The notes beneath the pieces are model-generated. The model saw nothing but the letters and a program-made list of their open reading frames with translations, made no database searches and was not told the DNA's origin. A DNA stretch of 12,696 bases from IMG/VR virus record IMGVR_UViG_2639763115_000001, positions 1 to 12,696 of that record, one strand, 5' to 3'. The first letter of the stretch is position 1. Each line of letters opens with the position of its first letter. Of this stretch, positions 1 through 12,696 are shown piece by piece. Source of the DNA: a virus (taxonomy: Duplodnaviria > Heunggongvirae > Uroviricota > Caudoviricetes). A program made the translations under genes and the position numbers.

Positions 1-154
1 GTAAGTTGGCAGCATCACCTACAACGGCATTACCGCTATGCATTGCTCATCTTACACACAGCGCAATGTTGATAGATAACCCCAGCATGGAACATGGGTG
101 AAACAGTAGGTCAGAGCTTCAGGCTCTGTGTTGTCAATACAGTGAGGCATAATT

Positions 155-364
155 ATGGCTTTCATTCCACCAACCATCGACGATGTTAGACATTGCTCTA
201 ACGCTTTATCTGTAGACCCCGCCGAAACCGACGCTGCCCGCGCCATTGCTGAACACTACTCAAAGATATCCAATCAGGAGTACCGCATCACCCAAGACGA
301 CCTGGATGACCTCACTGACACAATCGAATATCTCATGGCCACTAACCAGCCAGACTCACAATAA
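155..364 (+). CDS. Small, highly acidic hypothetical protein (69 aa)
   Basis: ATG at 155 preceded by GTGAGG SD 7 nt upstream. 14 Asp/Glu versus 4 Arg/Lys (net about -10). No family recognised. Confidence 0.5.
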   Translation: MAFIPPTIDDVRHCSNALSVDPAETDAARAIAEHYSKISNQEYRITQDDLDDLTDTIEYLMATNQPDSQ

Positions 365-401
365 ATGCACTAATAAATCTATTATTTTCGTTGGATCCTT
401 C

Positions 402-452
402 TATAATGGTGGCCAACAACTCCCAGTGTAATTCGCTGTGAGTTGTTGGCCA
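402..452 (+). promoter_or_regulatory. Perfect -10 hexamer TATAAT (402-407) followed by a 13-bp perfect inverted repeat (410-422 / 440-452, 17-nt spacer); candidate promoter/operator or 5' UTR stem-loop for the 283-aa gene
   Basis: Read directly: TGGCCAACAACTC ... GAGTTGTTGGCCA. Sits in the 110-nt gap between the two plus-strand genes, 22 nt before the GGAGGAGG SD of the downstream gene. No convincing -35. Confidence 0.4.
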
Positions 453-474
453 TGTCAATTCTGGAGGAGGATCA

Positions 475-1326
475 ATGATAAATTATGTCTACGGCGAACA
501 ACTGTACCAGGAGTTCGTCAGCTTCAGGGATCTCTTTCTAAAAAAAGCTGTTGCACGCGCCCAACACGTTGATGCCGCCAGCGACGGTCGTCCTGTACGC
601 CCGGTTGTCGTTCTGCCGTTCAAAGAAACGGACAGCATTCAGGCTGAAATTGATAAATGGACTTTAATGGCGCGGGAACTGGAACAGTACCCAGACCTCA
701 ATATCCCAAAGACTATTTTATATCCTGTGCCTAACATCCTTCGCGGTGTGCGTAAGGTTACGACCTATCAGACAGAAGCTGTAAACAGCGTCAACATGAC
801 CGCTGGCCGCATTATTCATCTGATTGATAAGGACATTCGCATCCAAAAAAGCGCGGGGTTCAATGAGCACAGTGCGAAATACATAGAGAACCTGGAAGCA
901 ACAAAAGAGCTAATGAAGCAGTACCCGGAGGATGAAAAATTCCGTATGCGCGTACACGGCTTTAGCGAAACAATGCTGCGCGTTCACTACATCTCCAGTA
1001 GTCCTAACTACAATAACGGTAAATCAGTTAGTTACCATGTGCCGCTGTGTGGCGTGTTTATCTGCGATGAAACTCTCCGTGATGGAATCATCATCAACGG
1101 TGAATTCGAGAAAGCAAAATTTAGCCTTTATGACTCCATAGAACCGATCATCTGCGACCGCTGGCCACAAGCAAAAATATATCGCCTGGCAGATATTGAA
1201 AATGTAAAAAAACAAATTGCCATCACTCGCGAAGAGAAAAAGGTTAAGTCAGCCGCATCAGTTACGCGCAGCCGTAAAACCAAGAAGGGGCAGCCAGTAA
1301 ACGACAACCCCGAAAGCGCGCAATAA
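475..1326 (+). CDS. Hypothetical protein (283 aa) with a Lys/Arg-rich C-terminal tail
   Basis: ATG at 475 with strong SD GGAGGAGG. Long clean ORF ending 3 nt before a hairpin terminator. No family recognised by eye. Confidence 0.7.
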   Translation: MINYVYGEQLYQEFVSFRDLFLKKAVARAQHVDAASDGRPVRPVVVLPFKETDSIQAEIDKWTLMARELEQYPDLNIPKTILYPVPNILRGVRKVTTYQTEAVNSVNMTAGRIIHLIDKDIRIQKSAGFNEHSAKYIENLEATKELMKQYPEDEKFRMRVHGFSETMLRVHYISSSPNYNNGKSVSYHVPLCGVFICDETLRDGIIINGEFEKAKFSLYDSIEPIICDRWPQAKIYRLADIENVKKQIAITREEKKVKSAASVTRSRKTKKGQPVNDNPESAQ

Positions 1327-1358
1327 ATTATGCCCGGCATCAACCGGGCATTCTTCCA
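1327..1358. terminator. Hairpin between convergent genes (stem ATGCCCGG/CCGGGCAT 1330-1351, 6-nt loop); probable bidirectional terminator
   Basis: 8-bp GC-rich stem read directly, with AT-rich flanks on both sides. Lies between the stop of the 283-aa gene (1324-1326) and the stop of the alternate-frame segment (1359-1361). Confidence 0.55.
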
Positions 1359-1586
1359 TTATTCAGCCGCCACCGGTTTTAACAAGCCAGCATCGAGCAG
1401 TTTACGCGTCAACCACTGCTGGCCTTTACCCGTTAATTGAGGCGTCAACCGTATCTGATAGCCATCTTCATCATCCAGCACCACTTCTTTCACCGTGAAA
1501 TAATCGACTATGACGAACGATATAAGGCGTAATGTGAGCGCCAGCTCCCGCAGCTCCACAGCCACAGCATGGACGGGAAGCCACAA
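1359..1586 (-). other. Out-of-frame 3' continuation of the 1471-2370 gene (probable true C-terminus after a frameshift)
   Basis: This frame is open for 75 codons and ends exactly at the 1330-1351 hairpin. Its translation (…[15 protein letters not shown]…KPVAAE) looks protein-like, while the tail of the 299-aa frame (…[15 protein letters not shown]…) does not. Track start is TTG. Confidence 0.3.
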
Positions 1587-2370
1587 AGTCCATGTACTCG
1601 GGCAATTTTAGCGATTGAAGTTTTGGTATTTTGAAATGCGCCATACCTGGGTCGGAGTCAACATCCACAGGGCATACTTTTGCACGCATCGGCGCGGCGC
1701 GTTCTTCCATCATTTGAACATATGCTGTAGCGCGATCGTCATACGGGCGAATATCCGCCTCTTTCAGAGGTCCGCTATCCTGCGGAGTAGCCTTCATCTT
1801 ATTTATTGATATGCGGCAGACTTCTTCCGGCATCAGGTGCATCATGTTGCGCATGAAAGCCCACCAGCACAGCTCCTGAATACTTAAATCATGGCTATTT
1901 GAAAGGCCCATTTCCTGACGGGCGACATCCAGTATCCAGTTAACGCGATTATTGTGCAGCGTTTCTTTCAGCTCATTAAAACCACGCATCCGGTAATGGT
2001 TATCGTGATGCCAGCACAACAACACCGCGCTATTGTCTCGTTCTGCGTGGACAATATGGTTGTCACACCAACTACGATCTGCGGCCTGGCATTGACCCTC
2101 TTTCCTACGCAACCACGCCACCAGCGCGTCAATTCCACCAATACGGCGAAACAGTTCATCGCTGTTAAAAAACGGCTGCAACGCCTCATTTGTTGCCATG
2201 GTTTGCTCCGTAACAACGAGGCCGTCTTCCATGTGCTCGATTAACTCACGCGGCACCGGCTCCATAATAAATTTACGGCCAGCCTCCACCAGCTTTCGGA
2301 CCTCCTGATCCACTTTGAACGTGGCGAGGCCAAGCTCTTTCTGTACAAAGGGAGTAATTACGGCTTTCAC
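1471..2370 (-). CDS. Phage protein with a Cys/His cluster (C-x2-H … C-W-H-H-x2-H), HNH-like/metal-binding; tentatively DUF968-like; apparently frameshifted near 1580
   Basis: GTG start at 2370 with AAGGTG SD 5 nt upstream. Motif [24 protein letters not shown] read from the translation. Family assignment is from memory only. Confidence 0.55.
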
Positions 2371-2397
2371 ATCACACCTTTAATCACTGATTGGGCT

Positions 2398-2577
2398 TTA
2401 TCTGCTGCCCGGCATTATCTGTTTAAGCACAACCATTTCCTGACGGCATAACACAGCAATAGCAGTCCTGGCTCCAATTTGCTTACCAACCAGGTATTGC
2501 TTTACCTCGCGGCGACTCACGCCATCAAGAAGCATCTTTAACGCTTCACGGGACAATTTGTTGTATTTGCGTGCCAT
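2398..2577 (-). CDS. Small basic hypothetical protein (59 aa) immediately downstream of doc
   Basis: Internal ATG at 2577 with GGAG SD 7 nt upstream, 5 nt after the doc stop codon. The track ORF starts at an upstream ATG (2598) that overlaps doc. Confidence 0.45.
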   Translation of the reverse strand: MARKYNKLSREALKMLLDGVSRREVKQYLVGKQIGARTAIAVLCRQEMVVLKQIMPGSR

Positions 2578-2581
2578 TAAT

Positions 2582-2962
2582 CTACTCCGCAGAACCATAC
2601 AATCTACGTAACGTGGCGGCGACAGAAGATACAGATATCTCGCCAGTCGCAGCGCCTACAGTAAGGTCTGCCAGTTCAGGTGAATCAAATACCTGCACCC
2701 CGTTACGGCGTAGAAATAGCAGCGCACTGTTTAGCGCGGTACGCTTATTGGCATCATTGAATATATGCCCTCTCGCTGTAGCCACCAGGTAGGTGGCGGA
2801 GACTTCGAAAAGGTCGGTGATCTCTTCGTAGGCAACTCTGGCCTGAACTCTCCCGATAATGGCCTCTGCCCTACCCGGATCTGACATTCCCGGCAGGCCG
2901 CCGTAGCGGCTTATATTCGCATCATGAAGCGCAATAAGTTCTTCCGGTGATATATGCCTCAT
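2582..2962 (-). CDS. doc: Doc toxin (Fic-fold kinase, death on curing), 126 aa
   Basis: Translation carries the Fic/Doc active-site motif [12 protein letters not shown] and matches P1 Doc as I remember it over its whole length. Start ATG shares one base with the phd stop (TAATG). Confidence 0.95.
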
Positions 2963-3183
2963 TATCGGTTAACCAGTTCCTTGTTGGTGGAGTCCAGGGT
3001 GTCAAACAGGGATGCAAATTCAGCATCCAGCGCCGCTTTTTTGTAGGCTTCGAAAGTAGCCTTGCTGACAATTACTGCTGGCTCACGGCCTCTGCGGGTG
3101 ATTTCAACCTCTTCCCCGGCTTCAACATTGTTGAGCACTTCAGAAAGGTTGCCGCGCGCGGTACGGAAGTTAATGGATTGCAT
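2962..3183 (-). CDS. phd: Phd antitoxin (prevent host death), 73 aa
   Basis: Translation from the internal ATG ([19 protein letters not shown]…) matches P1 Phd in sequence and length. GAGGTG SD 5 nt upstream. The track ORF begins 2 codons earlier on GTG. Confidence 0.93.
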
Positions 3184-3189
3184 AAACAC

Positions 3190-3221
3190 CTCGTGTACTC
3201 GTTATGTGTACACAATTATAA
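3190..3221 (-). promoter_or_regulatory. Putative phd-doc promoter/operator: perfect palindrome TGTGTACACA (3205-3214), adjacent GTGTAC half-site (3193-3198), minus-strand -10 TATAAT (3215-3220)
   Basis: Palindrome and hexamer read directly. Phd/Doc are known to autoregulate through palindromic operator sites at their promoter. -35 is poor. Confidence 0.5.
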
Positions 3222-3255
3222 ACTTCACAGGCATAAAGCACCAGCACTTTGCAGC

Positions 3256-3645
3256 TTAAATCACCGGACAGTCATCAAATTCCCCACTTCGGGCATCATT
3301 GATGACATGAGTGATCACACCAAAAACAGCATTACTACCCGTGTAACCATCGTCATCTACTGGTAACGCCTCTTTCTTCCCGGTGCTTAAATCCTCCAGG
3401 TGCTGGCGCGGATACTTTCGGTATCTCTTTATGCGATATTCACCCTCCATAGCGCAGACAAGCAGCGAACCATCAACCGGAGTAAGCGAGGAATCAACCA
3501 CCAGCAAAGCACCCTGCAATATTCCCTCACGGTGATGGCTGTCTGCCGCCCGCATGAAGTATGTCGCTGATGGATGCCTGATTAGTTGCTGATCAAGAGA
3601 AATTCTGCTTTCAACATAATCCGCCGCAGGAGAAGGGAAGCCCAT
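3256..3645 (-). CDS. humD: UmuD'-like protein (S24 peptidase fold), encoded already in the processed form
   Basis: Starts MGFPSPAADYVE…, the N-terminus UmuD has only after RecA-mediated cleavage at Cys24-Gly25. Conserved HPSATYF and LLVVDSS blocks. GAGGTG SD. No umuC-like polymerase follows. Confidence 0.85.
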   Translation of the reverse strand: MGFPSPAADYVESRISLDQQLIRHPSATYFMRAADSHHREGILQGALLVVDSSLTPVDGSLLVCAMEGEYRIKRYRKYPRQHLEDLSTGKKEALPVDDDGYTGSNAVFGVITHVINDARSGEFDDCPVI

Positions 3646-3662
3646 AGCGTTTTCACCTCAAC

Positions 3663-3682
3663 AATACTGTTTATTTATACAG
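3663..3682. promoter_or_regulatory. LexA (SOS) box TACTGTTTATTTATACAGTA
   Basis: CTGT-N8-ACAG with TA flanks, about 17/20 to the E. coli consensus. Lies 18 nt upstream of the humD start codon and 138 nt upstream of the divergent 191-aa gene. Confidence 0.8.
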
Positions 3683-3819
3683 TATACATTAAAGAGACAC
3701 CTTTGGTGCAAACGCGTTATGTACATCAACCACCGCAGATGATTTTGTGCGCTTTGCTACTATTCATCACCAACGGATCAGCGTAACCTCGTTGCCAATC
3801 AGTTAATAAGGAATTAGCT

Positions 3820-4395
3820 ATGCCTAATCGCATTCCTCTCGATCCTGTATTGCCCAAAAATTTTGACTGCACTCCTAACGAGAAACGCTCTAAAGCTCAG
3901 CTGGACGCCTGGTGGGATCATCCGTATGGAGTTACACAATCTGACGGGAAAATTGTTGTTTTTTGTCTAAACGGTGGCGCGTGGGACCGTCCATCCATGC
4001 TTTGTTTGGCAGATAACTATGATGACGCCTGTGAACTTGCAGAAAGAAAGCAGGCAAGCTGGGTAAAAACACGGTCTAAACCGTCATTCATGTTTTCAAT
4101 AGAACCGCCATTTATCCTAGCAAGGATGCCGCAGCGACCAGACCAGGAACAGCAAGAGATTGTTGCCGAATTTGATTCAAGGGAAGAAATGAACCTCTTC
4201 ACGATGAAACAGGAACAAGAAGAGAATCTTGGAGTTTCACCATTTTTGGATCACAAGAGTATGAACCTCGACCTGCTTATCTGGTACAGCAATGAGCTTG
4301 AGTTATCGCTGTCCCGGCTTGAAAAAGAAAAAGCAGCTATCCAGGCACAACGTGAAGCTGTGTTGGCGCGGATTAAAGAAGTACAGAACGGATGA
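3820..4395 (+). CDS. Hypothetical protein (191 aa) with C-terminal coiled-coil, divergent from humD across the LexA box; possibly the lxr (LexA-regulated) position of P1
   Basis: ATG at 3820 with AAGGA SD. The lxr assignment is positional only, not sequence-based. Confidence 0.6.
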   Translation: MPNRIPLDPVLPKNFDCTPNEKRSKAQLDAWWDHPYGVTQSDGKIVVFCLNGGAWDRPSMLCLADNYDDACELAERKQASWVKTRSKPSFMFSIEPPFILARMPQRPDQEQQEIVAEFDSREEMNLFTMKQEQEENLGVSPFLDHKSMNLDLLIWYSNELELSLSRLEKEKAAIQAQREAVLARIKEVQNG

Positions 4396-4401
4396 TTGCT
4401 G

Positions 4402-4653
4402 TTATTTTTTGATGGTATCGTCTTTTTGGTATACCGGATCGCTTCCCTTTGGCAACTGGAGGCTTAACTGCCGGTAGTGCCGTAGACGTTCCATGAAATA
4501 GGTGCGCAGGTTCTCTGGTTGCTCGCGGGCTACCTGTTCAGCTATGACAGGTATGTTCAATCGCTCTTTGTAGGCAACCCCCCTAGCAGCCAGGTCAACG
4601 TTAACTTTATTCCTTTCTTCCTGGCTTTTAGCTGCTATGTTCCATTCGTTCAT
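4402..4653 (-). CDS. hot: Homolog of DNA polymerase III theta subunit (HolE-like), 83 aa
   Basis: [42 protein letters not shown] aligns with E. coli theta ([42 protein letters not shown]). Second in-frame ATG chosen, giving the 83-aa length I recall for P1 Hot; the track ORF starts 4 codons earlier (4665). Confidence 0.85.
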
Positions 4654-5121
4654 ATTAAATCCCATCCAGAATAATTGAATAACGGCTATTATTTAGTCGC
4701 CGCAATATCTTCAAAGTTTTTTTCTCACCCCATTGCTTTTTGCGCACAGCTTATCTGGCTTGCGGTGCGCCGAAATGTAAATTCGCCTTCAGAGTTATCC
4801 ACAAAGTTATGCACTTGCAACGAGGCCATTTTCCTCATACTGTGTTTGCACACACAGGAAATGGATATTTTATTAATTGAATTTTATTAAATAATAATGA
4901 TAAGGAGAAAATTTGAGATGTAATCATGACATTAATAGATAGGGCCTGCATTACAGGCCCCAACTACATCAAGGAATTCACAGTTCCCTGATTTTTATAC
5001 CGAAAACATGTGCCGTAAGTTCACGTTAACGACTTTCTTTCACCGAATCCAACTATATAGAGGTTGGGTTTCTACGTCAACGTGAGAGCACACAGCTTTA
5101 CATTTGACGAGGATTACCCTG

Positions 5122-5259
5122 ATGATTGTAATTTTTCAGTTTCTAAGTGCATTTTTAAATGCGCCTGTTCTTAGCCAAGTGCTGGCGATTGTCTTCATCG
5201 TGGTTCTGATATGGTTTTTCAAGTCAGTGATAAACAGAGGCGTGCGCTGGCTTATTTAA
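5122..5259 (+). CDS. Small hydrophobic protein (45 aa, MIVIFQFLSAFLNAPVLSQVLAIVFIVVLIWFFKSVINRGVRWLI); one predicted transmembrane helix, basic C-terminus
   Basis: Not in the ORF track. ATG at 5122 with GAGGA SD 8 nt upstream. Only plus-strand gene in an AT-rich intergenic island. Confidence 0.3.
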   Translation: MIVIFQFLSAFLNAPVLSQVLAIVFIVVLIWFFKSVINRGVRWLI

Positions 5260-5442
5260 TGTCGCGCTGAGATATTAATTCCCTTGCTGTTTAACCATTT
5301 TTTGTGTGTGCTGGTGAGCGTGTGAAGGCTCAATTTGTTGCCCACCAGTATTTACTATTTCTAAGCTCCACAGTGTCACTTCCGCACAAACAACTTAGCG
5401 CGGAATCAGTATTCGGCCCAAGATGTAAAAAGCCAACCTGCG

Positions 5443-5709
5443 TTATGGTTCGCATTTCCAAATAGTGTTCTGAACGCCCGTGCCGGGCGCGAGATGTGGA
5501 TTAGCGTTCGCGCTATGCTGATATACGGCTTTAGACTTTCCATATTGCTGACAGGCTTTATCTGCGGTTTTTTGCAGGCTATCCAGCCCATACCAGCCAT
5601 CAGACTGGATGCTTACCTTTTCACCGTCATTGTATTGCACCATTGCACACCCGGACATAGCCAGCATCGCACCGACAATAACGCTTTTCCATAAAACTCT
5701 ATGCAACAT
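5443..5709 (-). CDS. Putative small lipoprotein (88 aa from ATG; signal peptide with lipobox-like AMSGC)
   Basis: N-terminus MLHRVLWKSVIVGAMLAMSGC has a basic n-region, hydrophobic core and Cys. Track ORF starts on TTG two codons upstream. SD-like GAGGGGA lies inside the upstream terminator stem. Confidence 0.45.
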   Translation of the reverse strand: MLHRVLWKSVIVGAMLAMSGCAMVQYNDGEKVSIQSDGWYGLDSLQKTADKACQQYGKSKAVYQHSANANPHLAPGTGVQNTIWKCEP

Positions 5710-5713
5710 ATAC

Positions 5714-5745
5714 AAAAATCCCCTCTGTGAATTGAGGGGATTTTA
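5714..5745. terminator. Rho-independent terminator hairpin (TCCCCTC / GAGGGGA, 8-nt loop) with A-tract and T-tract flanks
   Basis: Read directly. Lies 34 nt downstream of the stop of the 249-aa minus-strand gene; the T-run follows the stem on the minus strand. Confidence 0.6.
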
Positions 5746-5778
5746 GCATGGTGATCAGATATCAGCTTTATCAGGAAT

Positions 5779-6528
5779 TTAATCAGCCTCCAGTGGCAAT
5801 AACGCCTTAGCCATTTCATGAACCAACATGGCATCAATGACGCCTAGCGTATGGCCCGGCTTAATCTTTAATGCGGCCTCAAGATAGCCTCTTTCCAGAG
5901 TGGTTTTTACGCTTTTCCTGGGCGCCTGTTGGGAACTATCCGGAAGATCCGGATGGTTCCCAGCCTCATAAGCTATCCGCAACCAGTGCATGAATGTTTC
6001 CGCAGACACACAACCGCAGTCCACATCGATTTTCCCGCGTTGCTGTTCCAGCCATTGCCCAAAATCCAACCTGTAAGCCTTACTTTCAAGTTCATCGCCA
6101 TTGAACTCGACTTTCTGCGACGCTATGAGAGCTGATTCGTATTGTTCGCGAGTGACAACTGACTGGTATTCATCGCTATCAAGATCACCAATTGGAAGCT
6201 CAATCTCACAACAAAAATTGCGCCCAAAGAACGTGTCTTTTTTGTGGTCTGAGCCAAAAGCAAAAGTCGCGCATGGCGCCATTAAATTGGCACTGAGCAG
6301 GCGACAATCGATCATACCATCAGGCCACCCGCCGCACTTAGGCAGCTCCTTCACTAACAAGTCGATAAGCTTCATTTTTTTATCATCTTTGCTAGTTGCT
6401 AACGCCATTTTTGCAAGTCCAAATACTTCATCTGCCGTATATCCAGCACCGTGACCATACATTTCGATACGGGAAATAATCTCTGATATACGCTCTTTAG
6501 TGATTCTGGTCATTTCTTTTTGCGCCAT
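5779..6528 (-). CDS. Hypothetical protein (249 aa)
   Basis: Long ORF. The ATG at 6528 has an AAGGA SD about 12 nt upstream; an alternative ATG at 6513 forms an ATGA start/stop overlap with the upstream gene. Confidence 0.7.
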   Translation of the reverse strand: MAQKEMTRITKERISEIISRIEMYGHGAGYTADEVFGLAKMALATSKDDKKMKLIDLLVKELPKCGGWPDGMIDCRLLSANLMAPCATFAFGSDHKKDTFFGRNFCCEIELPIGDLDSDEYQSVVTREQYESALIASQKVEFNGDELESKAYRLDFGQWLEQQRGKIDVDCGCVSAETFMHWLRIAYEAGNHPDLPDSSQQAPRKSVKTTLERGYLEAALKIKPGHTLGVIDAMLVHEMAKALLPLEAD

Positions 6529-6884
6529 TTCTTTTCACATTCCTTAGTCCATTTTTCAATGTTCATTTTGGCAATATCAGTCATTCCATCGCCTAAGAAA
6601 TACCTTTCCCGGTATGTCTTGCACTTAAACCACACTACAATAGCCACCAGCCAGAAAATAAAAGGCCAGACAGCAATACCAACTACAGCCACGATAAAGT
6701 CCAATAGACACAAATGAAGCTCCCCTACTTCTGTTTCAGGCAATATCTTTAAAGAGTTAAACAGCAGACTGAACGAATGGTCGTATGCAGTAGCGCTATA
6801 AGACATACAATCCATATAATTAAAATCATAGCCTGCGGCTGCCGCCCATAATGGGCAGTCAAGAAAATGTTTGAATGTCATCAT
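6510..6884 (-). CDS. Hypothetical membrane protein (124 aa), one long hydrophobic segment and a Lys-rich C-terminus
   Basis: ATG-ATG start at 6884 with no clear SD. Hydrophobic stretch FIVAVVGIAVWPFIFWLVAIVVWF. Confidence 0.5.
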   Translation of the reverse strand: MMTFKHFLDCPLWAAAAGYDFNYMDCMSYSATAYDHSFSLLFNSLKILPETEVGELHLCLLDFIVAVVGIAVWPFIFWLVAIVVWFKCKTYRERYFLGDGMTDIAKMNIEKWTKECEKKWRKKK

Positions 6885-6950
6885 ATAAATTTAATCAGTT
6901 ACACAGTGTGGCTGCTTCCCTGCCGTAACAGCAGGGTAATAAAGTTATAA

Positions 6951-7115
6951 TCAGTCTCCAGATAGAGATATAGCTAACGCACCAACGAGGAATAAGGTGC
7001 TACCAGCCAATGCACCGCAGCTCTCCGTTCCCCATTCAACGCCACCAGCCAAAGCCACAAAAAAACCACAAACACAGACAAATATAAACGTCGCCCAAAA
7101 CTGTTTCTTTTTCAT
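6951..7115 (-). CDS. Small membrane protein (54 aa, MKKKQFWATFIFVCVCGFFVALAGGVEWGTESCGALAGSTLFLVGALAISLSGD)
   Basis: Not in the ORF track. ATG at 7115 shares a base with the stop of the upstream gene (TAATG). GGAG 9 nt upstream. Two hydrophobic segments. Confidence 0.35.
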   Translation of the reverse strand: MKKKQFWATFIFVCVCGFFVALAGGVEWGTESCGALAGSTLFLVGALAISLSGD

Positions 7116-7408
7116 TATGGGGTGCTCCAGTTATCTTCAATTACAATGCTCAACCTTTGTAGCCATTCTGCTAATTTCAGCATTGCTTCTCTTTCGCTTA
7201 AACCACGCGGGAAATCATCAAGCGATATTGTTGGCTTGAAGTTCCCGAAATTATCCATTTCAACTGTCAGATTTTGCTCTAACACGGTATTCCTGACACG
7301 GCTATTGTGCCGAAGCAAATATACTGATCGTGATTCATTAGTTTTGTGGTCGAATTGATATTCGGTAAGTATCATCTGGCTTTTGCCATGACTATTACCT
7401 CTCCACAT
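7115..7408 (-). CDS. Hypothetical protein (97 aa from the internal ATG)
   Basis: ATG at 7408 with GAGG SD 7 nt upstream. The track ORF (7115-7495) extends further upstream across a small overlapping ORF, so the longer start is less likely. Confidence 0.5.
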   Translation of the reverse strand: MWRGNSHGKSQMILTEYQFDHKTNESRSVYLLRHNSRVRNTVLEQNLTVEMDNFGNFKPTISLDDFPRGLSEREAMLKLAEWLQRLSIVIEDNWSTP

Positions 7409-7415
7409 ACTTACC

Positions 7416-7538
7416 TCACTTAATAAAACAACTCCATGCGTAGTTGATGATTTTTTCCCACGCAATATAAATCTGCACTCCAGCAGTAAAACCAAAGCCT
7501 ACAATTGCTGAAAAAATCAAAACATTTACTTTTGACAT
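7416..7538 (-). CDS. Small hydrophobic peptide (40 aa, MSKVNVLIFSAIVGFGFTAGVQIYIAWEKIINYAWSCFIK)
   Basis: Not in the ORF track. Weak SD. Stop lies 8 nt before the ATG of the downstream 97-aa gene. Confidence 0.25.
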   Translation of the reverse strand: MSKVNVLIFSAIVGFGFTAGVQIYIAWEKIINYAWSCFIK

Positions 7539-7586
7539 TATAAAATTTCTCTCGGTGTCGTAGGTGATAGCACCATAATTGATAAT

Positions 7587-7919
7587 TTAGTGAGTTAGCA
7601 GCTTCATTTTTTTGATGATTTCCGCATGAGCATCATCGTTATCAACACTTAGCTCGTTTAATGCTTCTCGCACTACATCAACTTCTTCAGGCTGAAAGAA
7701 GTCGTCGCGGTAATCACCAAATAGAACCGAAACCAGCCTGGCACCAGCAACATCAAGATTAGCGCTAACAGGTGGCTCGATATCTCGCCCACAATTCCAG
7801 GCTTTTTGGGCTTCTTCCAGCGTGTAAACATGAGCGCGATCGATATCAGAGCTGTAACCATTGCCGTTATGGCAATGGAATGAAGCGTTATTACCCACAG
7901 TTTCACGCGAGCACATCAT
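7587..7919 (-). CDS. Hypothetical Cys/His-containing protein (110 aa from ATG)
   Basis: Track ORF starts on TTG at 7961 and would overlap the upstream gene by 32 nt. First ATG (MMCSRE…) lies 10 nt after the upstream stop. Cys3, His15, Cys16, His17, Cys43 near the N-terminus. Confidence 0.5.
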   Translation of the reverse strand: MMCSRETVGNNASFHCHNGNGYSSDIDRAHVYTLEEAQKAWNCGRDIEPPVSANLDVAGARLVSVLFGDYRDDFFQPEEVDVVREALNELSVDNDDAHAEIIKKMKLLTH

Positions 7920-7929
7920 GTAAAAACGG

Positions 7930-8511
7930 TTACTCACTGGTTGCCCCCTGAATACGCTCAAACTCGATTACCCAAACCCAGGGATTAGCGTTCCAACTTT
8001 CTTCGCCATAAATTGATTCCCATAGGCTACGGAAACCTGGGTAATGCTTATCGCCAATGAGGGTAAATTCTGTTGGTGCGCCCTCAGCCCTTGCATCGCA
8101 TTCGCTGATATCGTTCAACCGCTCAACGCGCACGTTGGTAATTTCCAGCAAAATGCGCGATGCCCAGCGCGGCATGTGAATTGATGGCGTCCACTTTTCT
8201 GATACTGGCTTATTACAAACCTCAACCGGAACCCGGTGCGTTTGTTCTGTCCAGGAGTTACGCACGCTTGCGCGATAAACCAGCGTTGCGACGTCCGTCG
8301 CTTTGCCATGTACCCGGTAGGTTTCACGAACCCAAATACGATCTCCCGGTTGACCATATGGACAATGTTTAGCAAGCAACTCTGCGGCCACTGCCCGTCC
8401 ATAGAATTTTTCTTCAACAATCCTGCGAGTCTGTGTTTTATTCCCGCCAAGAATTGCCCGGACCATCTCATCGTTGAAAATCATGCCGCGCTCTTTCACT
8501 TCGCCTTTCAT
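7930..8511 (-). CDS. Phage protein, tentatively ASCH-like domain (193 aa)
   Basis: ATG at 8511 with AAGGGGGA SD. The MIFNDEMVRAILGGNKTQTRR … PGDRIWVRETY pattern recalls ASCH-type phage proteins; assignment from memory. Confidence 0.65.
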   Translation of the reverse strand: MKGEVKERGMIFNDEMVRAILGGNKTQTRRIVEEKFYGRAVAAELLAKHCPYGQPGDRIWVRETYRVHGKATDVATLVYRASVRNSWTEQTHRVPVEVCNKPVSEKWTPSIHMPRWASRILLEITNVRVERLNDISECDARAEGAPTEFTLIGDKHYPGFRSLWESIYGEESWNANPWVWVIEFERIQGATSE

Positions 8512-8520
8512 GCATCCCCC

Positions 8521-8607
8521 TTACCCATGCGCGACAATGCCGCCAAAAGTGATAGAGAACAGCCAGAAATAGATCGCGGCCATAATGATTTTGAATGCCG
8601 TGTTCAT
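8521..8607 (-). CDS. Small hydrophobic peptide (28 aa, MNTAFKIIMAAIYFWLFSITFGGIVAHG), first ORF of the operon
   Basis: Not in the ORF track. Consensus AGGAG SD exactly 8 nt upstream of the ATG. Ends 10 nt before the next gene. Confidence 0.3.
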   Translation of the reverse strand: MNTAFKIIMAAIYFWLFSITFGGIVAHG

Positions 8608-8634
8608 ATTTTCAGCTCCTGTGATTGATTGGAT

Positions 8635-8666
8635 ACATGCCGCGCCTTGCGGCATGTTTTTATTTT
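8635..8666 (+). terminator. Strong hairpin (9-bp stem ACATGCCGC/GCGGCATGT, 5-nt loop) followed by TTTTTATTTT on the plus strand; terminator-like in plus orientation, or a 5' UTR stem-loop of the minus-strand operon
   Basis: Read directly. On the minus strand the stem is preceded by an A-tract and has no U-tract, so it would not terminate minus-strand transcription. Confidence 0.45.
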
Positions 8667-8676
8667 CACTTTCTCT

Positions 8677-8706
8677 GTTTTAAAAATCAATATTTATTAG
8701 AGCAAT
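8677..8706 (-). promoter_or_regulatory. C1-repressor-operator-like site ATTGCTCTAATAAATAT (8690-8706) overlapping a putative promoter (-35 TTGCTC, 17-nt spacer, -10 TAAAAC at 8677-8682)
   Basis: 16/17 match to the P1 C1 operator consensus ATTGCTCTAATAAATTT as I recall it. Overlaps the HAD gene stop codon by 1 nt; lies upstream of the 28-aa ORF and ASCH-like gene. Confidence 0.55.
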
Positions 8707-9212
8707 TATTGTTGATGGAGAAGCGCGTTTTCATACTCCCTGACCATTAACGTAAGCACGCCGTGCCTCCTGAAAACACGCGCCACTTCAATCTTATCTT
8801 CCAGCGCGAACGCGATTTTACTTAGACCAATTTTCTTAAGGAGATCAATCTTTGCTGGGCCGTCATTTCTGTCATCGGTGGCAGGACGCATAGATAGCAA
8901 AGGCTCAGCCCCGTTTGTTACGTACTTCCGCAGCCAGGCTCGTGTTTTATCCCTTGCGATCTCACAGCGCCCGGTTACAAACCAGACCGTGTAAACGTTA
9001 AATAACTGGCGCACAATATCAATAACTGGAGTTATGGGAGTATCAGTGTCACAGGCGAGATTAAACTCGTTCCAGTCCTTTGTTAATGCACCTTTACCTG
9101 GTGGCGGAAGCAAATGCAGTCTGTCTTCAGTTGCCTCTGATATTGTTCCATCAATATCAACTATGACGATATACGGACGTTCCTGGTGTGCGTGTTTATT
9201 GAAAATACTCAA
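8706..9212 (-). CDS. HAD-superfamily phosphatase/nucleotidase-like protein (168 aa)
   Basis: Motif I VIVDIDGT near the N-terminus, later T (WFVTGR) and K/DD-like positions. Only in-frame start is TTG at 9212, preceded by strong GAGGAGGG SD. Confidence 0.65.
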   Translation of the reverse strand: MSIFNKHAHQERPYIVIVDIDGTISEATEDRLHLLPPPGKGALTKDWNEFNLACDTDTPITPVIDIVRQLFNVYTVWFVTGRCEIARDKTRAWLRKYVTNGAEPLLSMRPATDDRNDGPAKIDLLKKIGLSKIAFALEDKIEVARVFRRHGVLTLMVREYENALLHQQ

Positions 9213-9230
9213 ATGCCCTCCTCATTGGAC

Positions 9231-9264
9231 GAAAAAAATGCTGGTGGGCGCACTCCACCAGCAT
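9231..9264 (-). terminator. Rho-independent terminator (10-bp stem ATGCTGGTGG/CCACCAGCAT, 7-nt loop, then T7 on the minus strand)
   Basis: Read directly. Lies between the 420-aa gene stop (9285) and the HAD gene start (9212), so it may act as an attenuator. Confidence 0.65.
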
Positions 9265-9284
9265 TAAAAGTGACACTGTAACTG

Positions 9285-10547
9285 TCAGCGAACGTAAATA
9301 GTGCCGCCGTTCTCTTTTTCCCATGCATCGCTACGTGCATAGCAAACATCGAGAAGTCTTCTTGCCGCTGTTTCCTCTAAACCCAATTCGACAACCAACT
9401 GCTCATGACGGCGGGTAACCACATCAAACAGGGTATGCAGCCCTTTAGCTGCCAGATCATCAATAAATTCCGGTTCGAACGGCAGCTCTGCATCTGCCAA
9501 CATAACCTCTTGCGCCCACTCGACACGGCGGACCAGTTCCGGGCGGCGGCTTTCCATCTCTTTACAGATCAATTCATGGAAGAACTCTACCCAACCTTCC
9601 GGCTGGAACTCGCGGAAAATGGCCAGCGGCTGGAAGTTTGGCATCAACCATTCGTTGATTCGGATATCAATGGCATAGCCCATGTCGCAGCAGAACTGAT
9701 AAGCAAAGTCCAGCTTAGAAACGATATAAGGACGCTCGTTATTGAACTCTTTAGGCGATGAGATCCCATAAGCCAGGAGGCGCGGGAAGAAGGAGATTTG
9801 CCCTAACGTCGGATGAAGTTTGCTTGCAGGGAAACGGCGCTCAGTAATGCCATACATTTCCTTCTTGAGCGTCGCAAATTTGGCATTCTCATTAACCAGC
9901 GCGGTAACCTCTGCTTTTTTATTAGCAAATGCCACGCGCGCTTCGCTTGCATCTTTAATAGTTTTTTTGAGCTGTTGGTTAAGATCGGCGACCTGCTTAC
10001 GCAGTTCCTGTCGCTCGCTTTTAGCTTTGTTATAGCGTTTCTCAAGGTTAAAAGGATCAAGTTTCATGATCTCTTTATATTGAGATTTTAGCGTTGAAAT
10101 CTGTGAGTTCCGCAGTTCAACCATCGCGGTCATTTCATTGAGTTTTGTTTCCAGCTCAATGCTTATACGTTCGGCATTATCAGCACGCTGGTTGGCGTCA
10201 TGCGTCGCATCGTCGATCGCGTCCTGTTGCTGGCGTTTCAAATGTTCAATTTGTAGCTGAAGCTCTTCAATTTCTTTACCCTTCAGACCGAGATCCAACT
10301 GCATATTTTCAGCTGCATCTACCAGGGAGTTATGGCTATCAGCTTCTGCGTTATAAACATCAATAAGCTGTGCGTGAAGCATCTCCGCTGACTGAACCGC
10401 ATTATCAAAAAAACGCGCTGTGAGGTCATCACAACTAACGCGGCGTTGCGCGGCCCGGATGTTCTGGATAATGGCTGGGATACCGGCATTCAGGACGTCA
10501 GGGATAGATACATTTTCGATTGATTGGTTTTGTGCTGAAGTGCTCAT
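9285..10547 (-). CDS. Hypothetical protein (420 aa): N-terminal ~230-aa coiled-coil, uncharacterised C-terminal domain
   Basis: Long ORF with ATG start. Heptad-like, charge-rich sequence (…EELQLQIEHLKRQQQDAIDDA…) from the translation. Confidence 0.7.
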   Translation of the reverse strand: MSTSAQNQSIENVSIPDVLNAGIPAIIQNIRAAQRRVSCDDLTARFFDNAVQSAEMLHAQLIDVYNAEADSHNSLVDAAENMQLDLGLKGKEIEELQLQIEHLKRQQQDAIDDATHDANQRADNAERISIELETKLNEMTAMVELRNSQISTLKSQYKEIMKLDPFNLEKRYNKAKSERQELRKQVADLNQQLKKTIKDASEARVAFANKKAEVTALVNENAKFATLKKEMYGITERRFPASKLHPTLGQISFFPRLLAYGISSPKEFNNERPYIVSKLDFAYQFCCDMGYAIDIRINEWLMPNFQPLAIFREFQPEGWVEFFHELICKEMESRRPELVRRVEWAQEVMLADAELPFEPEFIDDLAAKGLHTLFDVVTRRHEQLVVELGLEETAARRLLDVCYARSDAWEKENGGTIYVR

Positions 10548-10548
10548 T

Positions 10549-10767
10549 TCAAAGTTCCGTATTAGCTTGTGCTTCGGTCATTTTTCCTAAGTATGAAGGT
10601 GGAAGGACTACGCAATTTGTATCCAGTCCCTCACCTATGGCAGCCTGTAAAATTCTGGCTAAGGTGAGTCTCTTGTTGCGATACCTGGTGATTACATGCC
10701 TGATACCGCCGGTCGGCGTAACAAAGGCGATCAGCCAGTAGTGATATTTCCGTCGGAATGGCCACAT
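10549..10767 (-). CDS. Hypothetical small protein (72 aa), first gene after the operator/promoter
   Basis: ATG at 10767 with AAGGTG SD 6 nt upstream. Stop is 1 nt before the ATG of the 420-aa gene. Confidence 0.45.
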   Translation of the reverse strand: MWPFRRKYHYWLIAFVTPTGGIRHVITRYRNKRLTLARILQAAIGEGLDTNCVVLPPSYLGKMTEAQANTEL

Positions 10768-10781
10768 AGCGCACCTTGTAG

Positions 10782-10847
10782 ATTGCTCTAATAAAAAACG
10801 TGATGAGTGTACATCACGTTTTAAAAATATGAAATTATTAGAGCAAT
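10782..10847. promoter_or_regulatory. Pair of inverted C1-operator-like sites (10782-10798, plus orientation, 14/17; 10831-10847, minus orientation, 15/17) flanking an 11-bp-stem hairpin (10795-10822) that is a terminator for the upstream gene; putative promoter -35 TTGCTC / -10 TAAAAC on the minus strand
   Basis: Read directly. Outer 12-bp arms ATTGCTCTAATA/TATTAGAGCAAT are perfect inverted repeats. Inner stem AAAACGTGATG/CATCACGTTTT is followed by T6 on the minus strand. Confidence 0.55.
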
Positions 10848-10848
10848 A

Positions 10849-11550
10849 TTATTCTGATTCTCGCTCAAAAAATGAGCTGATAAGGGGAAGCCAATCCTCT
10901 GACACTTCGCGAGGTCGCGGTTTGCCGTGGAAAAAGATTATTCGGCAGTCTTTTGGTAATGCCCCATTCCCCCTGGAGTAACGCGCGCTCGCATATTTTG
11001 AACCAGGTTCCACAACATCGGCCTTGTAACTTACAAACCATCCTGGATACAGATCCTGAAATGCTGGTGTATCATCGCCCATAACCTTTCGTAAGAACCC
11101 CTGGTCACCCCAGCACTCAGTAGTGACACAACGAGAAATCCAACCTTCCGGATCTTGCCAGAATGAACTCCAGATATGCGCTTTTACACTATTTGGTATC
11201 CACAGGGCACCGCTACCACGATATTGTGGATGGTAAAAATCCCTAAGCATGGTGAAGCTGGTTGGTGGATTCTCAAGGATTGGGCGTATATCACCGGCAA
11301 TAACTGTGTCCAAATCCAGATAGAACAGATCATCTGTTATATCCGGTCGGAACAACTCGATTTTCGTCCACCAGCCACGGCACTTTTGCCACTGGTTGAT
11401 CAATGGGACAACTTTGACGCCAGGTACATGTAAACGCTTCAGGTCTGTCAGGCAAATAATTTCATAGCCTTTTGGCAGTTGATTAACCAGCCACTGCACA
11501 TCGGAAGCGTTATAGTCACCACCAGAGCGAAGAACTAAAGCAATCTTCAT
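10849..11550 (-). CDS. Hypothetical protein (233 aa), possibly a GT-A-type glycosyltransferase (DxD-like FYLDLDTV motif)
   Basis: ATG overlaps the ppp stop (ATGA). The functional guess rests only on the DxD-like motif and N-terminal beta-alpha start and is weak. Confidence 0.6.
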
Positions 11551-12239
11551 GCTGCACCATCACCTTTCACTTTCATCAATGTCAGGTTTCCGCAAAATAC
11601 GGCACCAGTGTCGATATAATGCTGATTCCAGAATGTCTTCGGGCTTTTCACCGGAGTGTGACCAAAGATAAAACGATCTGCGCCCGAAATTTCGCCACCA
11701 ATATCATCCATCGAATCACTGATACGCTCGCGCGCCCAGACAACGTTGAAAAGCGGCACCTCCTTACCGAATTGATATTCATTATCCGGATAGTCGGCAT
11801 GGGCTATAACGATAGTTTCTTGCCCGGTGTTCAACTCAATGATATAGGGCAGTCGTCTTACCAACTCCACCAGCGCCCTGGCTAATATTTCCTGATCAGC
11901 GTCCAGCATGAAGAACCATTGACCGCCATTCATTAGCCAATTATTCACGTTGCCATCAGGACTTAACGCATCAATCATCAGCTGCTCATGGTTGCCCATA
12001 ACCGCTCTGAACCATGGCATCTGCAATAGCTCCAAGCATTTAACATTTTCGGTGCCGCGATCGATAAGGTCGCCGACCGATATCAGTAAATCCTGCGCAG
12101 GGTCAAAATCCACACGATGGAGTTCGGACATCAGTCTGGTGTAGCAACCATGCAGATCACCAACAACCCAGATATTCCTGTATTTGGTACCGTCGATACG
12201 GTGATAAATTGTTGGTGCCATCATGTATTCTTCAGCCAT
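11547..12239 (-). CDS. ppp: Ser/Thr protein phosphatase, lambda-PPase-like metallophosphatase
   Basis: GDLHG, GDLIDRG, GNHE and later His motifs; near-collinear with lambda PPase from the IDG(T/S)[15 protein letters not shown] block onward. Start could be 12239, 12224 or 12221; the last overlaps the upstream stop as TGATG. Confidence 0.9.
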
Positions 12240-12565
12240 TCTTTAAGAGTCATCTGCGGAATACCTCCCATTTTCCCGCATGAAACAACGTCAATCTGTT
12301 CACGCGCAGACTGGAATAACAAAGGCAGGTGACTTAGATTTTTTGGCGTGCCGCCGGAATGAACGCGTGGTTCTTGCGTAGCGTCAACGCCCACCAGGGC
12401 TACATGTTTGAATCCGATATGGAAAGCCAGGTTCAGAGCACCATATGCACTATTGCCGCTGGCAATTTCATTCTCATCTTCGCAAAGGCCGAAATGTGCG
12501 GACCAGCGCCACGCCCACCACTCGGGAGAATTCGTATTTTTTGGCTCCGTGCCGCGCTCAGCCAC
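12221..12565 (-). CDS. Hypothetical protein; 5' end uncertain (GTG start at 12565, or a frameshifted/longer gene entering from beyond the window)
   Basis: C-terminal part (…[27 protein letters not shown]…) looks protein-like. A second minus frame is open from the window edge (12696) to 12433 and overlaps it. Confidence 0.35.
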
Positions 12566-12696
12566 ACGACGGAAGCACAGAACGCCGTCTCTGACCTCAC
12601 GTTCTTTAACATCGGGTAACCTTTTTTCTGCCCTTCAGCCTTCATTTTCCCGGCGGTTGCTTTTGAACGTTTCCCTCTGAAGTGGTTTACTGAATT

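Follow-up and report, generated by a model that had tools for sequence, protein, structure and literature searches.

The region from 2582 to 3682 of the 12,696-nucleotide (nt) stretch of DNA analysed here (IMG/VR virus record IMGVR_UViG_2639763115_000001, positions 1 to 12,696; hereafter the window) very probably represents humD-phd-doc of a P1-like phage-plasmid, with two independently mobile modules standing side by side. Judged by the sequence contexts in which they occur, the LexA box with the UmuD'-like gene humD, and the promoter Pphd with the toxin-antitoxin (TA) genes phd and doc, are two separable modules. A preliminary description of the window had read the region as one SOS-wired transcription unit. 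The features that it named are all present on the minus strand, as seen by direct reading of the sequence and in the list of open reading frames (ORFs). They are given below with their neighbours.

3706-3711, minus strand: -35-like hexamer TTGCAC of the putative humD promoter (comparison of humD contexts)
3681-3686, minus strand: -10-like hexamer TATACT of the putative humD promoter, overlapping the left arm of the LexA box (TGTACT in P1)
3665-3684 (3684-3665 on the minus strand), no strand assigned: LexA box TACTGTATAAATAAACAGTA (consensus match and P1 annotation)
3659-3654, minus strand: Shine-Dalgarno sequence of humD, GAGGTG
3256-3645, minus strand: humD, 129 amino acids (aa), UmuD'-like (Pfam Peptidase_S24 and alignment to UmuD)
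3184-3255, minus strand: humD-phd spacer of 72 nt, 100% identical to P1
3215-3243, minus strand: Pphd sigma-70 promoter, -35 TGGTGC at 3243-3238 and -10 TATAAT at 3220-3215 (P1 annotation mapped through the alignment)
3193-3213, no strand assigned: Phd/Doc operator, palindromic sites GTGTACAC (3213-3206) and GAGTACAC (3200-3193), by direct reading
2962-3183, minus strand: phd antitoxin, 73 aa (Pfam PhdYeFM_antitox), identical to P1 Phd
2582-2962, minus strand: doc toxin, 126 aa, Fic/Doc family (Pfam Fic)
2398-2598, minus strand: pdcA, a small ORF overlapping the 3' end of doc as in P1 (RefSeq calls a shorter 2398-2577)
3820-4395, plus strand: lxr, the divergent neighbour of humD, named 'LexA regulated function' in P1 (ORF list and P1 annotation)

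The segment from 2300 to 4000 has 97.8% nucleotide identity over its full length to phages P1 and P7, and the entire 12.7-kb window is 100% identical to P1-like plasmids of Salmonella, E. coli, Shigella and E. albertii. Alignment to P1 humD-phd-doc had been proposed as a check of the preliminary description; when it was made, all gene and site identifications agreed with the P1 annotation. The curated P1 record (AF234172 / NC_005856, 87.5-88.7 kb) annotates each element (LexA site, humD, Pphd, phd and doc), and agrees with the window in gene content, order and spacing, in the LexA site and the Pphd promoter/operator, and in the TAATG overlap. Phd is identical in the two, and HumD and Doc differ by 1 aa each. 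Synteny and high identity to P1 extend across the c1-coi, pdcBA, doc-phd, humD, lxr, hot and pmg genes, as is characteristic of Punavirus. The humD-phd-doc cluster, the LexA regulation of humD, the pre-processed form of HumD and the phd-doc promoter/operator are already known P1 biology, and both the 'humD-phd-doc cluster' and LexA-regulated humD have been published (PMC9603915).

The separability of the two modules is apparent from their distribution. With positions 2582-3700 as the query, a search of 72,556 plasmids returned 1,423 matching records, only 477 of which cover at least 80% of the query. We examined the gene context in 40 evenly spaced records from these matching plasmids: humD and phd-doc occur together in 14, phd-doc occurs alone in 20, and a humD-like gene occurs alone in 5. 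In all 20 records with phd-doc alone the homology begins at query position 442, equivalent to window position 3259, inside the humD stop codon. For example, humD is absent from the IncF plasmid NZ_CP023854 and from phage phi456; in these a type I restriction-modification gene that is transcribed divergently lies upstream, which leaves phd-doc with only its own promoter. IncF plasmids with type I restriction-modification systems (EcoDXXI-type hsd) share Pphd-phd-doc-pdcA with the window at 98-99% identity, and their cassettes start where the humD stop codon would lie, in agreement with the module edge at 3259. Unlike the window, these cassettes have neither humD nor a LexA box upstream; they have a divergent neighbour and only their own promoter. 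As a separate observation, phd-doc-pdcA lies next to divergent hsdM/hsdS in IncF plasmids and phi456; an addiction module is here repeatedly found beside a restriction-modification system.

The opposite arrangement, humD followed by a convergent gene in the absence of phd-doc, is found in the SSU5-like plasmids pGD31-F25 and pTW10722, in phage Cyrano and in pTB423. Phage D6 has both modules, separated by an ORF of 141 aa. The inserted ORF of D6 is shared by plasmid NZ_CP157120 (D6 1938-2604). Upstream of phd, the similarity of D6 to P1 starts only at the Pphd -10, and the -35 region is thus replaced. The boundary between the modules is also visible in the comparison of the window with P1: humD is 3.6% diverged, and no difference occurs over the ~370 nt that follow it, which run through the spacer and phd into doc as far as the first mismatch in that gene. 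The P1 record itself points out 98% identity to a conjugative-plasmid sequence for a cassette that comprises the last 5 nt of humD and everything onward through doc.

HumD was assigned to Pfam PF00717 (Peptidase_S24; E = 5.7e-9, 36.1 bits against a cut-off of 23.3); like the assignments of Phd and Doc, this lies above the curated cut-off. The protein had been described as beginning exactly at the post-cleavage N-terminus of UmuD, and this was confirmed by alignment. Residues 2-116 of HumD correspond to 25-136 of full-length UmuD (8gmt_B), with HumD G2 opposite UmuD Gly25, and HumD aligns from residue 1 of crystallised UmuD' (1umu_A, E = 2.4e-23). The former alignment also shows that the S24 dyad (UmuD S60 and K97) is kept: its Ser is S36 in HumD, and its Lys is the K in 'RIKRY'. 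Since HumD lacks the 24-residue N-terminal arm, it would require no RecA-mediated self-cleavage. There are 14 nt changes in humD relative to P1 (3.6%) but only one aa change (C103G), which points to purifying selection on the gene, and the P1 record carries the note that humD 'functionally complements E. coli UmuD''. In umuDC and mucAB/rumAB a LexA box overlaps the promoter from which a mutagenesis protein of the S24 family is expressed, as is probably the case for humD, and HumD aligns with UmuD' over its whole length. In contrast to those systems, HumD is missing the 24-residue arm and humD is followed not by a umuC-like gene but by a TA pair.

The second module is as in P1. The humD stop codon ends at 3256 and the phd ATG lies at 3183, leaving a spacer of 72 nt that contains a perfect TATAAT (3220-3215) followed by the palindromes GTGTACAC and GAGTACAC. 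The palindromic operator/promoter attributed to phd-doc in the preliminary description is thus borne out, and its sequence is 100% identical to P1 Pphd. P1 phd-doc is autoregulated by conditional cooperativity (PMC4803016), and because the spacer and operator are identical to those of P1 this known Phd/Doc autoregulation applies directly here. Phd matches Pfam PF02604 (PhdYeFM_antitox, E = 2.8e-13) and its gene shows 0 nt differences from P1 phd. Doc matches PF02661 (Fic, E = 3e-9) with an intact Fic motif, H66-IFNDANKR-74; its single substitution relative to P1, D116A, falls outside HIFNDANKR. The phd stop codon and the doc ATG share one base (2962) in TAATG, the overlap that had been noted from the sequence.

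The spacer had also been described as free of any hairpin, and we found no intrinsic terminator in it. A terminator search gave no terminator-like site between humD and phd, the fold of 3300-3170 is no more stable than that of shuffled sequences (z = +1.04), and no Rfam family matched 2300-4700 at E ≤ 0.1. A hidden terminator or attenuator formed by the 3' end of humD and the spacer was considered and rejected, given the absence of stable or unusual structure. The spacer contains 11 C against 19 G, and such a short and C-poor sequence is unlikely to be a Rho entry site.

A near-consensus LexA box is present upstream of humD, although its coordinates had been given as 3663-3682 and the true palindrome lies 2 nt away, at 3665-3684. 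The distance from the box to the humD start, previously put at 18 nt, is 19 nt, with the ATG at 3645. The box was scored by its number of mismatches to the consensus. It has 2 mismatches to TACTGTATATATATACAGTA and is the single match at ≤3 mismatches in the window; 0 of 200 dinucleotide-preserving shuffles contained any match at this threshold. The CTGT-N8-ACAG core at 3667-3682 is intact and unique in the window. The P1 record labels this box 'LexA binding site in the regulatory region of lxr and humD'. Compared with P1, the window has A for G at box position 13, which leaves 2 mismatches here and 3 in P1, and A for G at the base immediately 5' of the box, which gives TATACT in place of TGTACT.

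To place the humD promoter we compared eight humD contexts: the window, P1, D6, pTB423, pGD31-F25, CMS-2020a, Cyrano and pTW10722. The sequence T(A/G)TACTGT-N8-ACAGTA lies 19-20 nt before the humD ATG in all eight, and the DNA further upstream is unrelated. On this comparison the LexA box belongs to humD, which it accompanies in every context examined. TATACT overlaps the left arm of the box in seven of the eight, P1 being the exception; TTGCAC or TTTCAC is found exactly 19 nt upstream of TATACT in six, and TTCAAA at 17 nt in the other two. The humD promoter, as positioned from these shared hexamers, probably overlaps the LexA box, an arrangement that would correspond to classical SOS occlusion. 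With regard to the reference phage, P1 is the outlier in the -10-like hexamer and its humD promoter may be unusually weak.

The P1 record places a 'predicted sigma 70 promoter PhumD' elsewhere. It maps to 4123-4152 of the window (minus strand), inside lxr, and consists of TTGATG-15-CATCCT about 440 nt upstream of the LexA box. We considered this distal site as the true humD promoter and judged it unlikely, as it is not conserved: its -35 is broken in the window by a 3-nt insertion, and its -10, CATCCT, is poor. The annotation probably does not mark a functional humD promoter.

Based on these observations, and taking HumD function, LexA regulation and Phd/Doc autoregulation from the P1 literature, we propose the following working of the two modules. 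In the first, humD would be transcribed from TTGCAC-19 nt-TATACT, whose -10 falls within the left arm of the box, and LexA would occlude this promoter until DNA damage leads to LexA cleavage. HumD would then be made directly in the UmuD' form and pair with host UmuC, skipping the RecA-mediated cleavage step. The second module, the phd-doc addiction operon, would be expressed from its own sigma-70 promoter, with Phd/Doc complexes repressing at the two palindromic sites and with TAATG coupling the translation of the two genes. In the absence of an intrinsic terminator between the modules, part of the SOS-induced transcription of humD may well continue into phd-doc, as it does in dinB-yafNO. Such read-through would be a side effect of the modules lying next to each other and would not be what chiefly controls the TA pair.

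Several points weigh against this proposal. The -35 of Pphd is weak (TGGTGC), and the proposed humD promoter has an unusual spacer of 19 nt between its -35 and -10. LexA binding, the transcription start sites, the position of the humD promoter and the read-through are in this region inferred from the sequence. Phd/Doc bound to the operator could act as a roadblock to any read-through. A scan of 2300-4500 for consensus sigma-70 promoters found no site; the same scan missed even the experimentally established Pphd, whose -35 is weak, and so it is unusable against either promoter.

The LexA box could alternatively serve mainly to control the divergent lxr, with humD expressed from the distal promoter inside lxr and the box acting at most as a roadblock. 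The naming of lxr in the P1 record and the PhumD predicted there would fit, as would the failure of the consensus scan to find a canonical promoter at the box. We nevertheless consider this arrangement very unlikely. In D6, pTB423, pGD31-F25, Cyrano, pTW10722 and CMS-2020a the box lies 19-20 nt from humD and homology to the window ends about 10 nt before the box; in those that carry annotation, all but CMS-2020a, no lxr is annotated upstream. In addition, 135 nt separate the box from the lxr start, and the distal promoter has the defects described above.

The extent to which SOS transcription reaches phd-doc is less settled, and the closest comparison is with dinB-yafN-yafO-yafP of E. coli. 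In both, a LexA-controlled translesion-synthesis gene is followed by a co-directional type II TA pair, and in the window no terminator was found between them. By Pfam, YafN is a member of the Phd/YefM family, as is Phd. E. coli yafNO is transcribed both from the upstream SOS dinB promoter and from its own antitoxin-autoregulated promoter, and its rise on DNA damage depends on the dinB promoter, as shown by deletion (PMC2814082). The systems differ in that the upstream gene encodes a polymerase (Pol IV) in one and a UmuD' accessory subunit in the other, in that YafO is RelE-like whereas Doc is a Fic-type kinase, and in that dinB-yafNO is chromosomal and SOS read-through has been demonstrated there, whereas for humD-phd-doc we infer it. 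For P1, Ronayne et al. 2016 used humD and phd primers for reverse-transcription quantitative PCR after thermal lytic induction, not DNA damage, and a CRISPR interference (CRISPRi) essentiality study lists these genes as non-essential. A literature search that did not cover Lehnherr 1993, McLenigan 1999, Lobocka 2004 or Magnuson 1996 gave no P1 transcript data under SOS.

The absence of an intrinsic terminator makes some read-through from the humD promoter into phd-doc physically plausible, and we regard its occurrence and its absence as about equally likely. The stronger view, that humD, phd and doc form one integrated SOS-induced unit through which DNA damage deliberately raises the TA pair together with a mutagenesis factor, appears unlikely. 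It draws on the co-directional genes with a 72-nt gap and no terminator hairpin, on a spacer too short and C-poor for Rho loading, on the retention of the arrangement in 477 plasmids and most P1-type phages, and on dinB-yafNO, which shows that such wiring exists. Against it, the modules occur freely without each other (about half of the matching plasmids have phd-doc alone and about an eighth humD alone, and D6 has an ORF between the two), and a mosaic boundary falls exactly at the humD stop, between a humD that is 3.6% diverged from P1 and an identical spacer and phd. The search of the literature, within the limits just given for the primary P1 papers, also returned no transcript data for an integrated unit. 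Moreover, co-transcription raises Phd and Doc together and should not by itself change toxin activity. Of the single SOS-wired unit first proposed, the lack of an intrinsic terminator stands, but the modules are separable and phd-doc has its own autoregulated promoter.

The converse possibility is that phd-doc is effectively insulated, with weak humD transcription stopped by operator-bound Phd/Doc or by factor-dependent termination, so that SOS has no measurable effect on the pair. We consider this somewhat less improbable than the integrated unit, but still rather unlikely. The operator sites stand directly in the path of read-through, HumD is reportedly poorly expressed from P1, and the phd-doc module is fully functional without an upstream co-directional gene. 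However, no terminator signal was found between humD and phd, read-through past an antitoxin-repressed promoter is readily detected in dinB-yafNO, and the -10 of the window (TATACT) is nearer to consensus than that of P1. Read-through from humD would then plausibly be at most an additional input to phd-doc, whose transcription is driven by an autoregulated promoter of its own. The apparent independent movement of the modules lowers the prior for a selected functional coupling, and we strongly doubt that read-through has a selected physiological role. It is similarly improbable that SOS read-through from humD has a physiological effect on phd-doc, with the improved box and -10 of the window providing a stronger input than in P1. 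If it did, read-through could top up labile Phd under DNA damage and spare a stressed lysogen from Doc; alternatively, a shifted Phd:Doc ratio could push damaged cells into Doc-mediated translation arrest.

As a discovery the region carries little weight, given that its genes, sites and cluster are annotated in the P1 reference record. The box-overlapping promoter and the stronger box are small refinements and add no new biology. Should DNA damage drive the addiction module, P1-type phage-plasmids would join dinB-yafNO as a case of an SOS-modulated TA system; even this speculative wiring has a characterised analogue there. The consequences would then extend to the stability of prophage-plasmids and to drug tolerance during exposure to quinolones, P1-type phage-plasmids being widespread carriers of resistance genes in Enterobacteriaceae.

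Beyond the segment itself, lxr stands out by its divergence from P1. Its overall nucleotide identity is 85%, falling to ~60-70% in the 3' half (with blocks down to ~60%) and accompanied by indels, and its flanks are at 96% (humD) and 97-100% (the lxr-humD intergenic region). The divergence agrees with the 'variable region 8' that has been published for P1-like plasmids. No Pfam family was matched by lxr.

The window also differs from P1 by a deletion. P1 89730-93231, comprising the 3' end of pdcB, Olpa/Plpa, lpa, pacA with the pac site, and pacB, is absent, and in its place are 174 nt (window 1326-1499) that match the 3' end of ant, which adjoins c1 in P1 relatives of the RCS47/phi456 type. 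On the two sides, window 1500-2629 corresponds to P1 88600-89729 and window 20-1325 to P1 93232-94537 (c1 and coi). The truncated pdcB encodes 299 aa, compared with 347 aa in P1, and lpa and pacAB, which belong to the lytic set of Punavirus, are missing from the position that they occupy in P1. The junction is spanned by no phage record and by at least 8 plasmids, and the first 45 kb of an identical plasmid, NZ_CP104485.1, have no match to P1 89730-93231. As the P1 CRISPRi essentiality table lists lpa and pacAB as essential for P1 lytic growth, the element may be unable to package unless these genes lie elsewhere.

NZ_CP104485.1 is a Salmonella plasmid in which the window corresponds to 36089-48784 and is bracketed by copies of the insertion sequence IS1. 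This plasmid is of mosaic structure and includes resistance genes bounded by IS26 (aadA2, lnu(F), aac(3)-IId, blaTEM-1 and tet(A)). This IS1-bracketed, mosaic placement indicates that the humD-phd-doc segment also travels outside intact P1-like prophages. The same plasmid carries a second TA pair, Phd/YefM-RelE/ParE.

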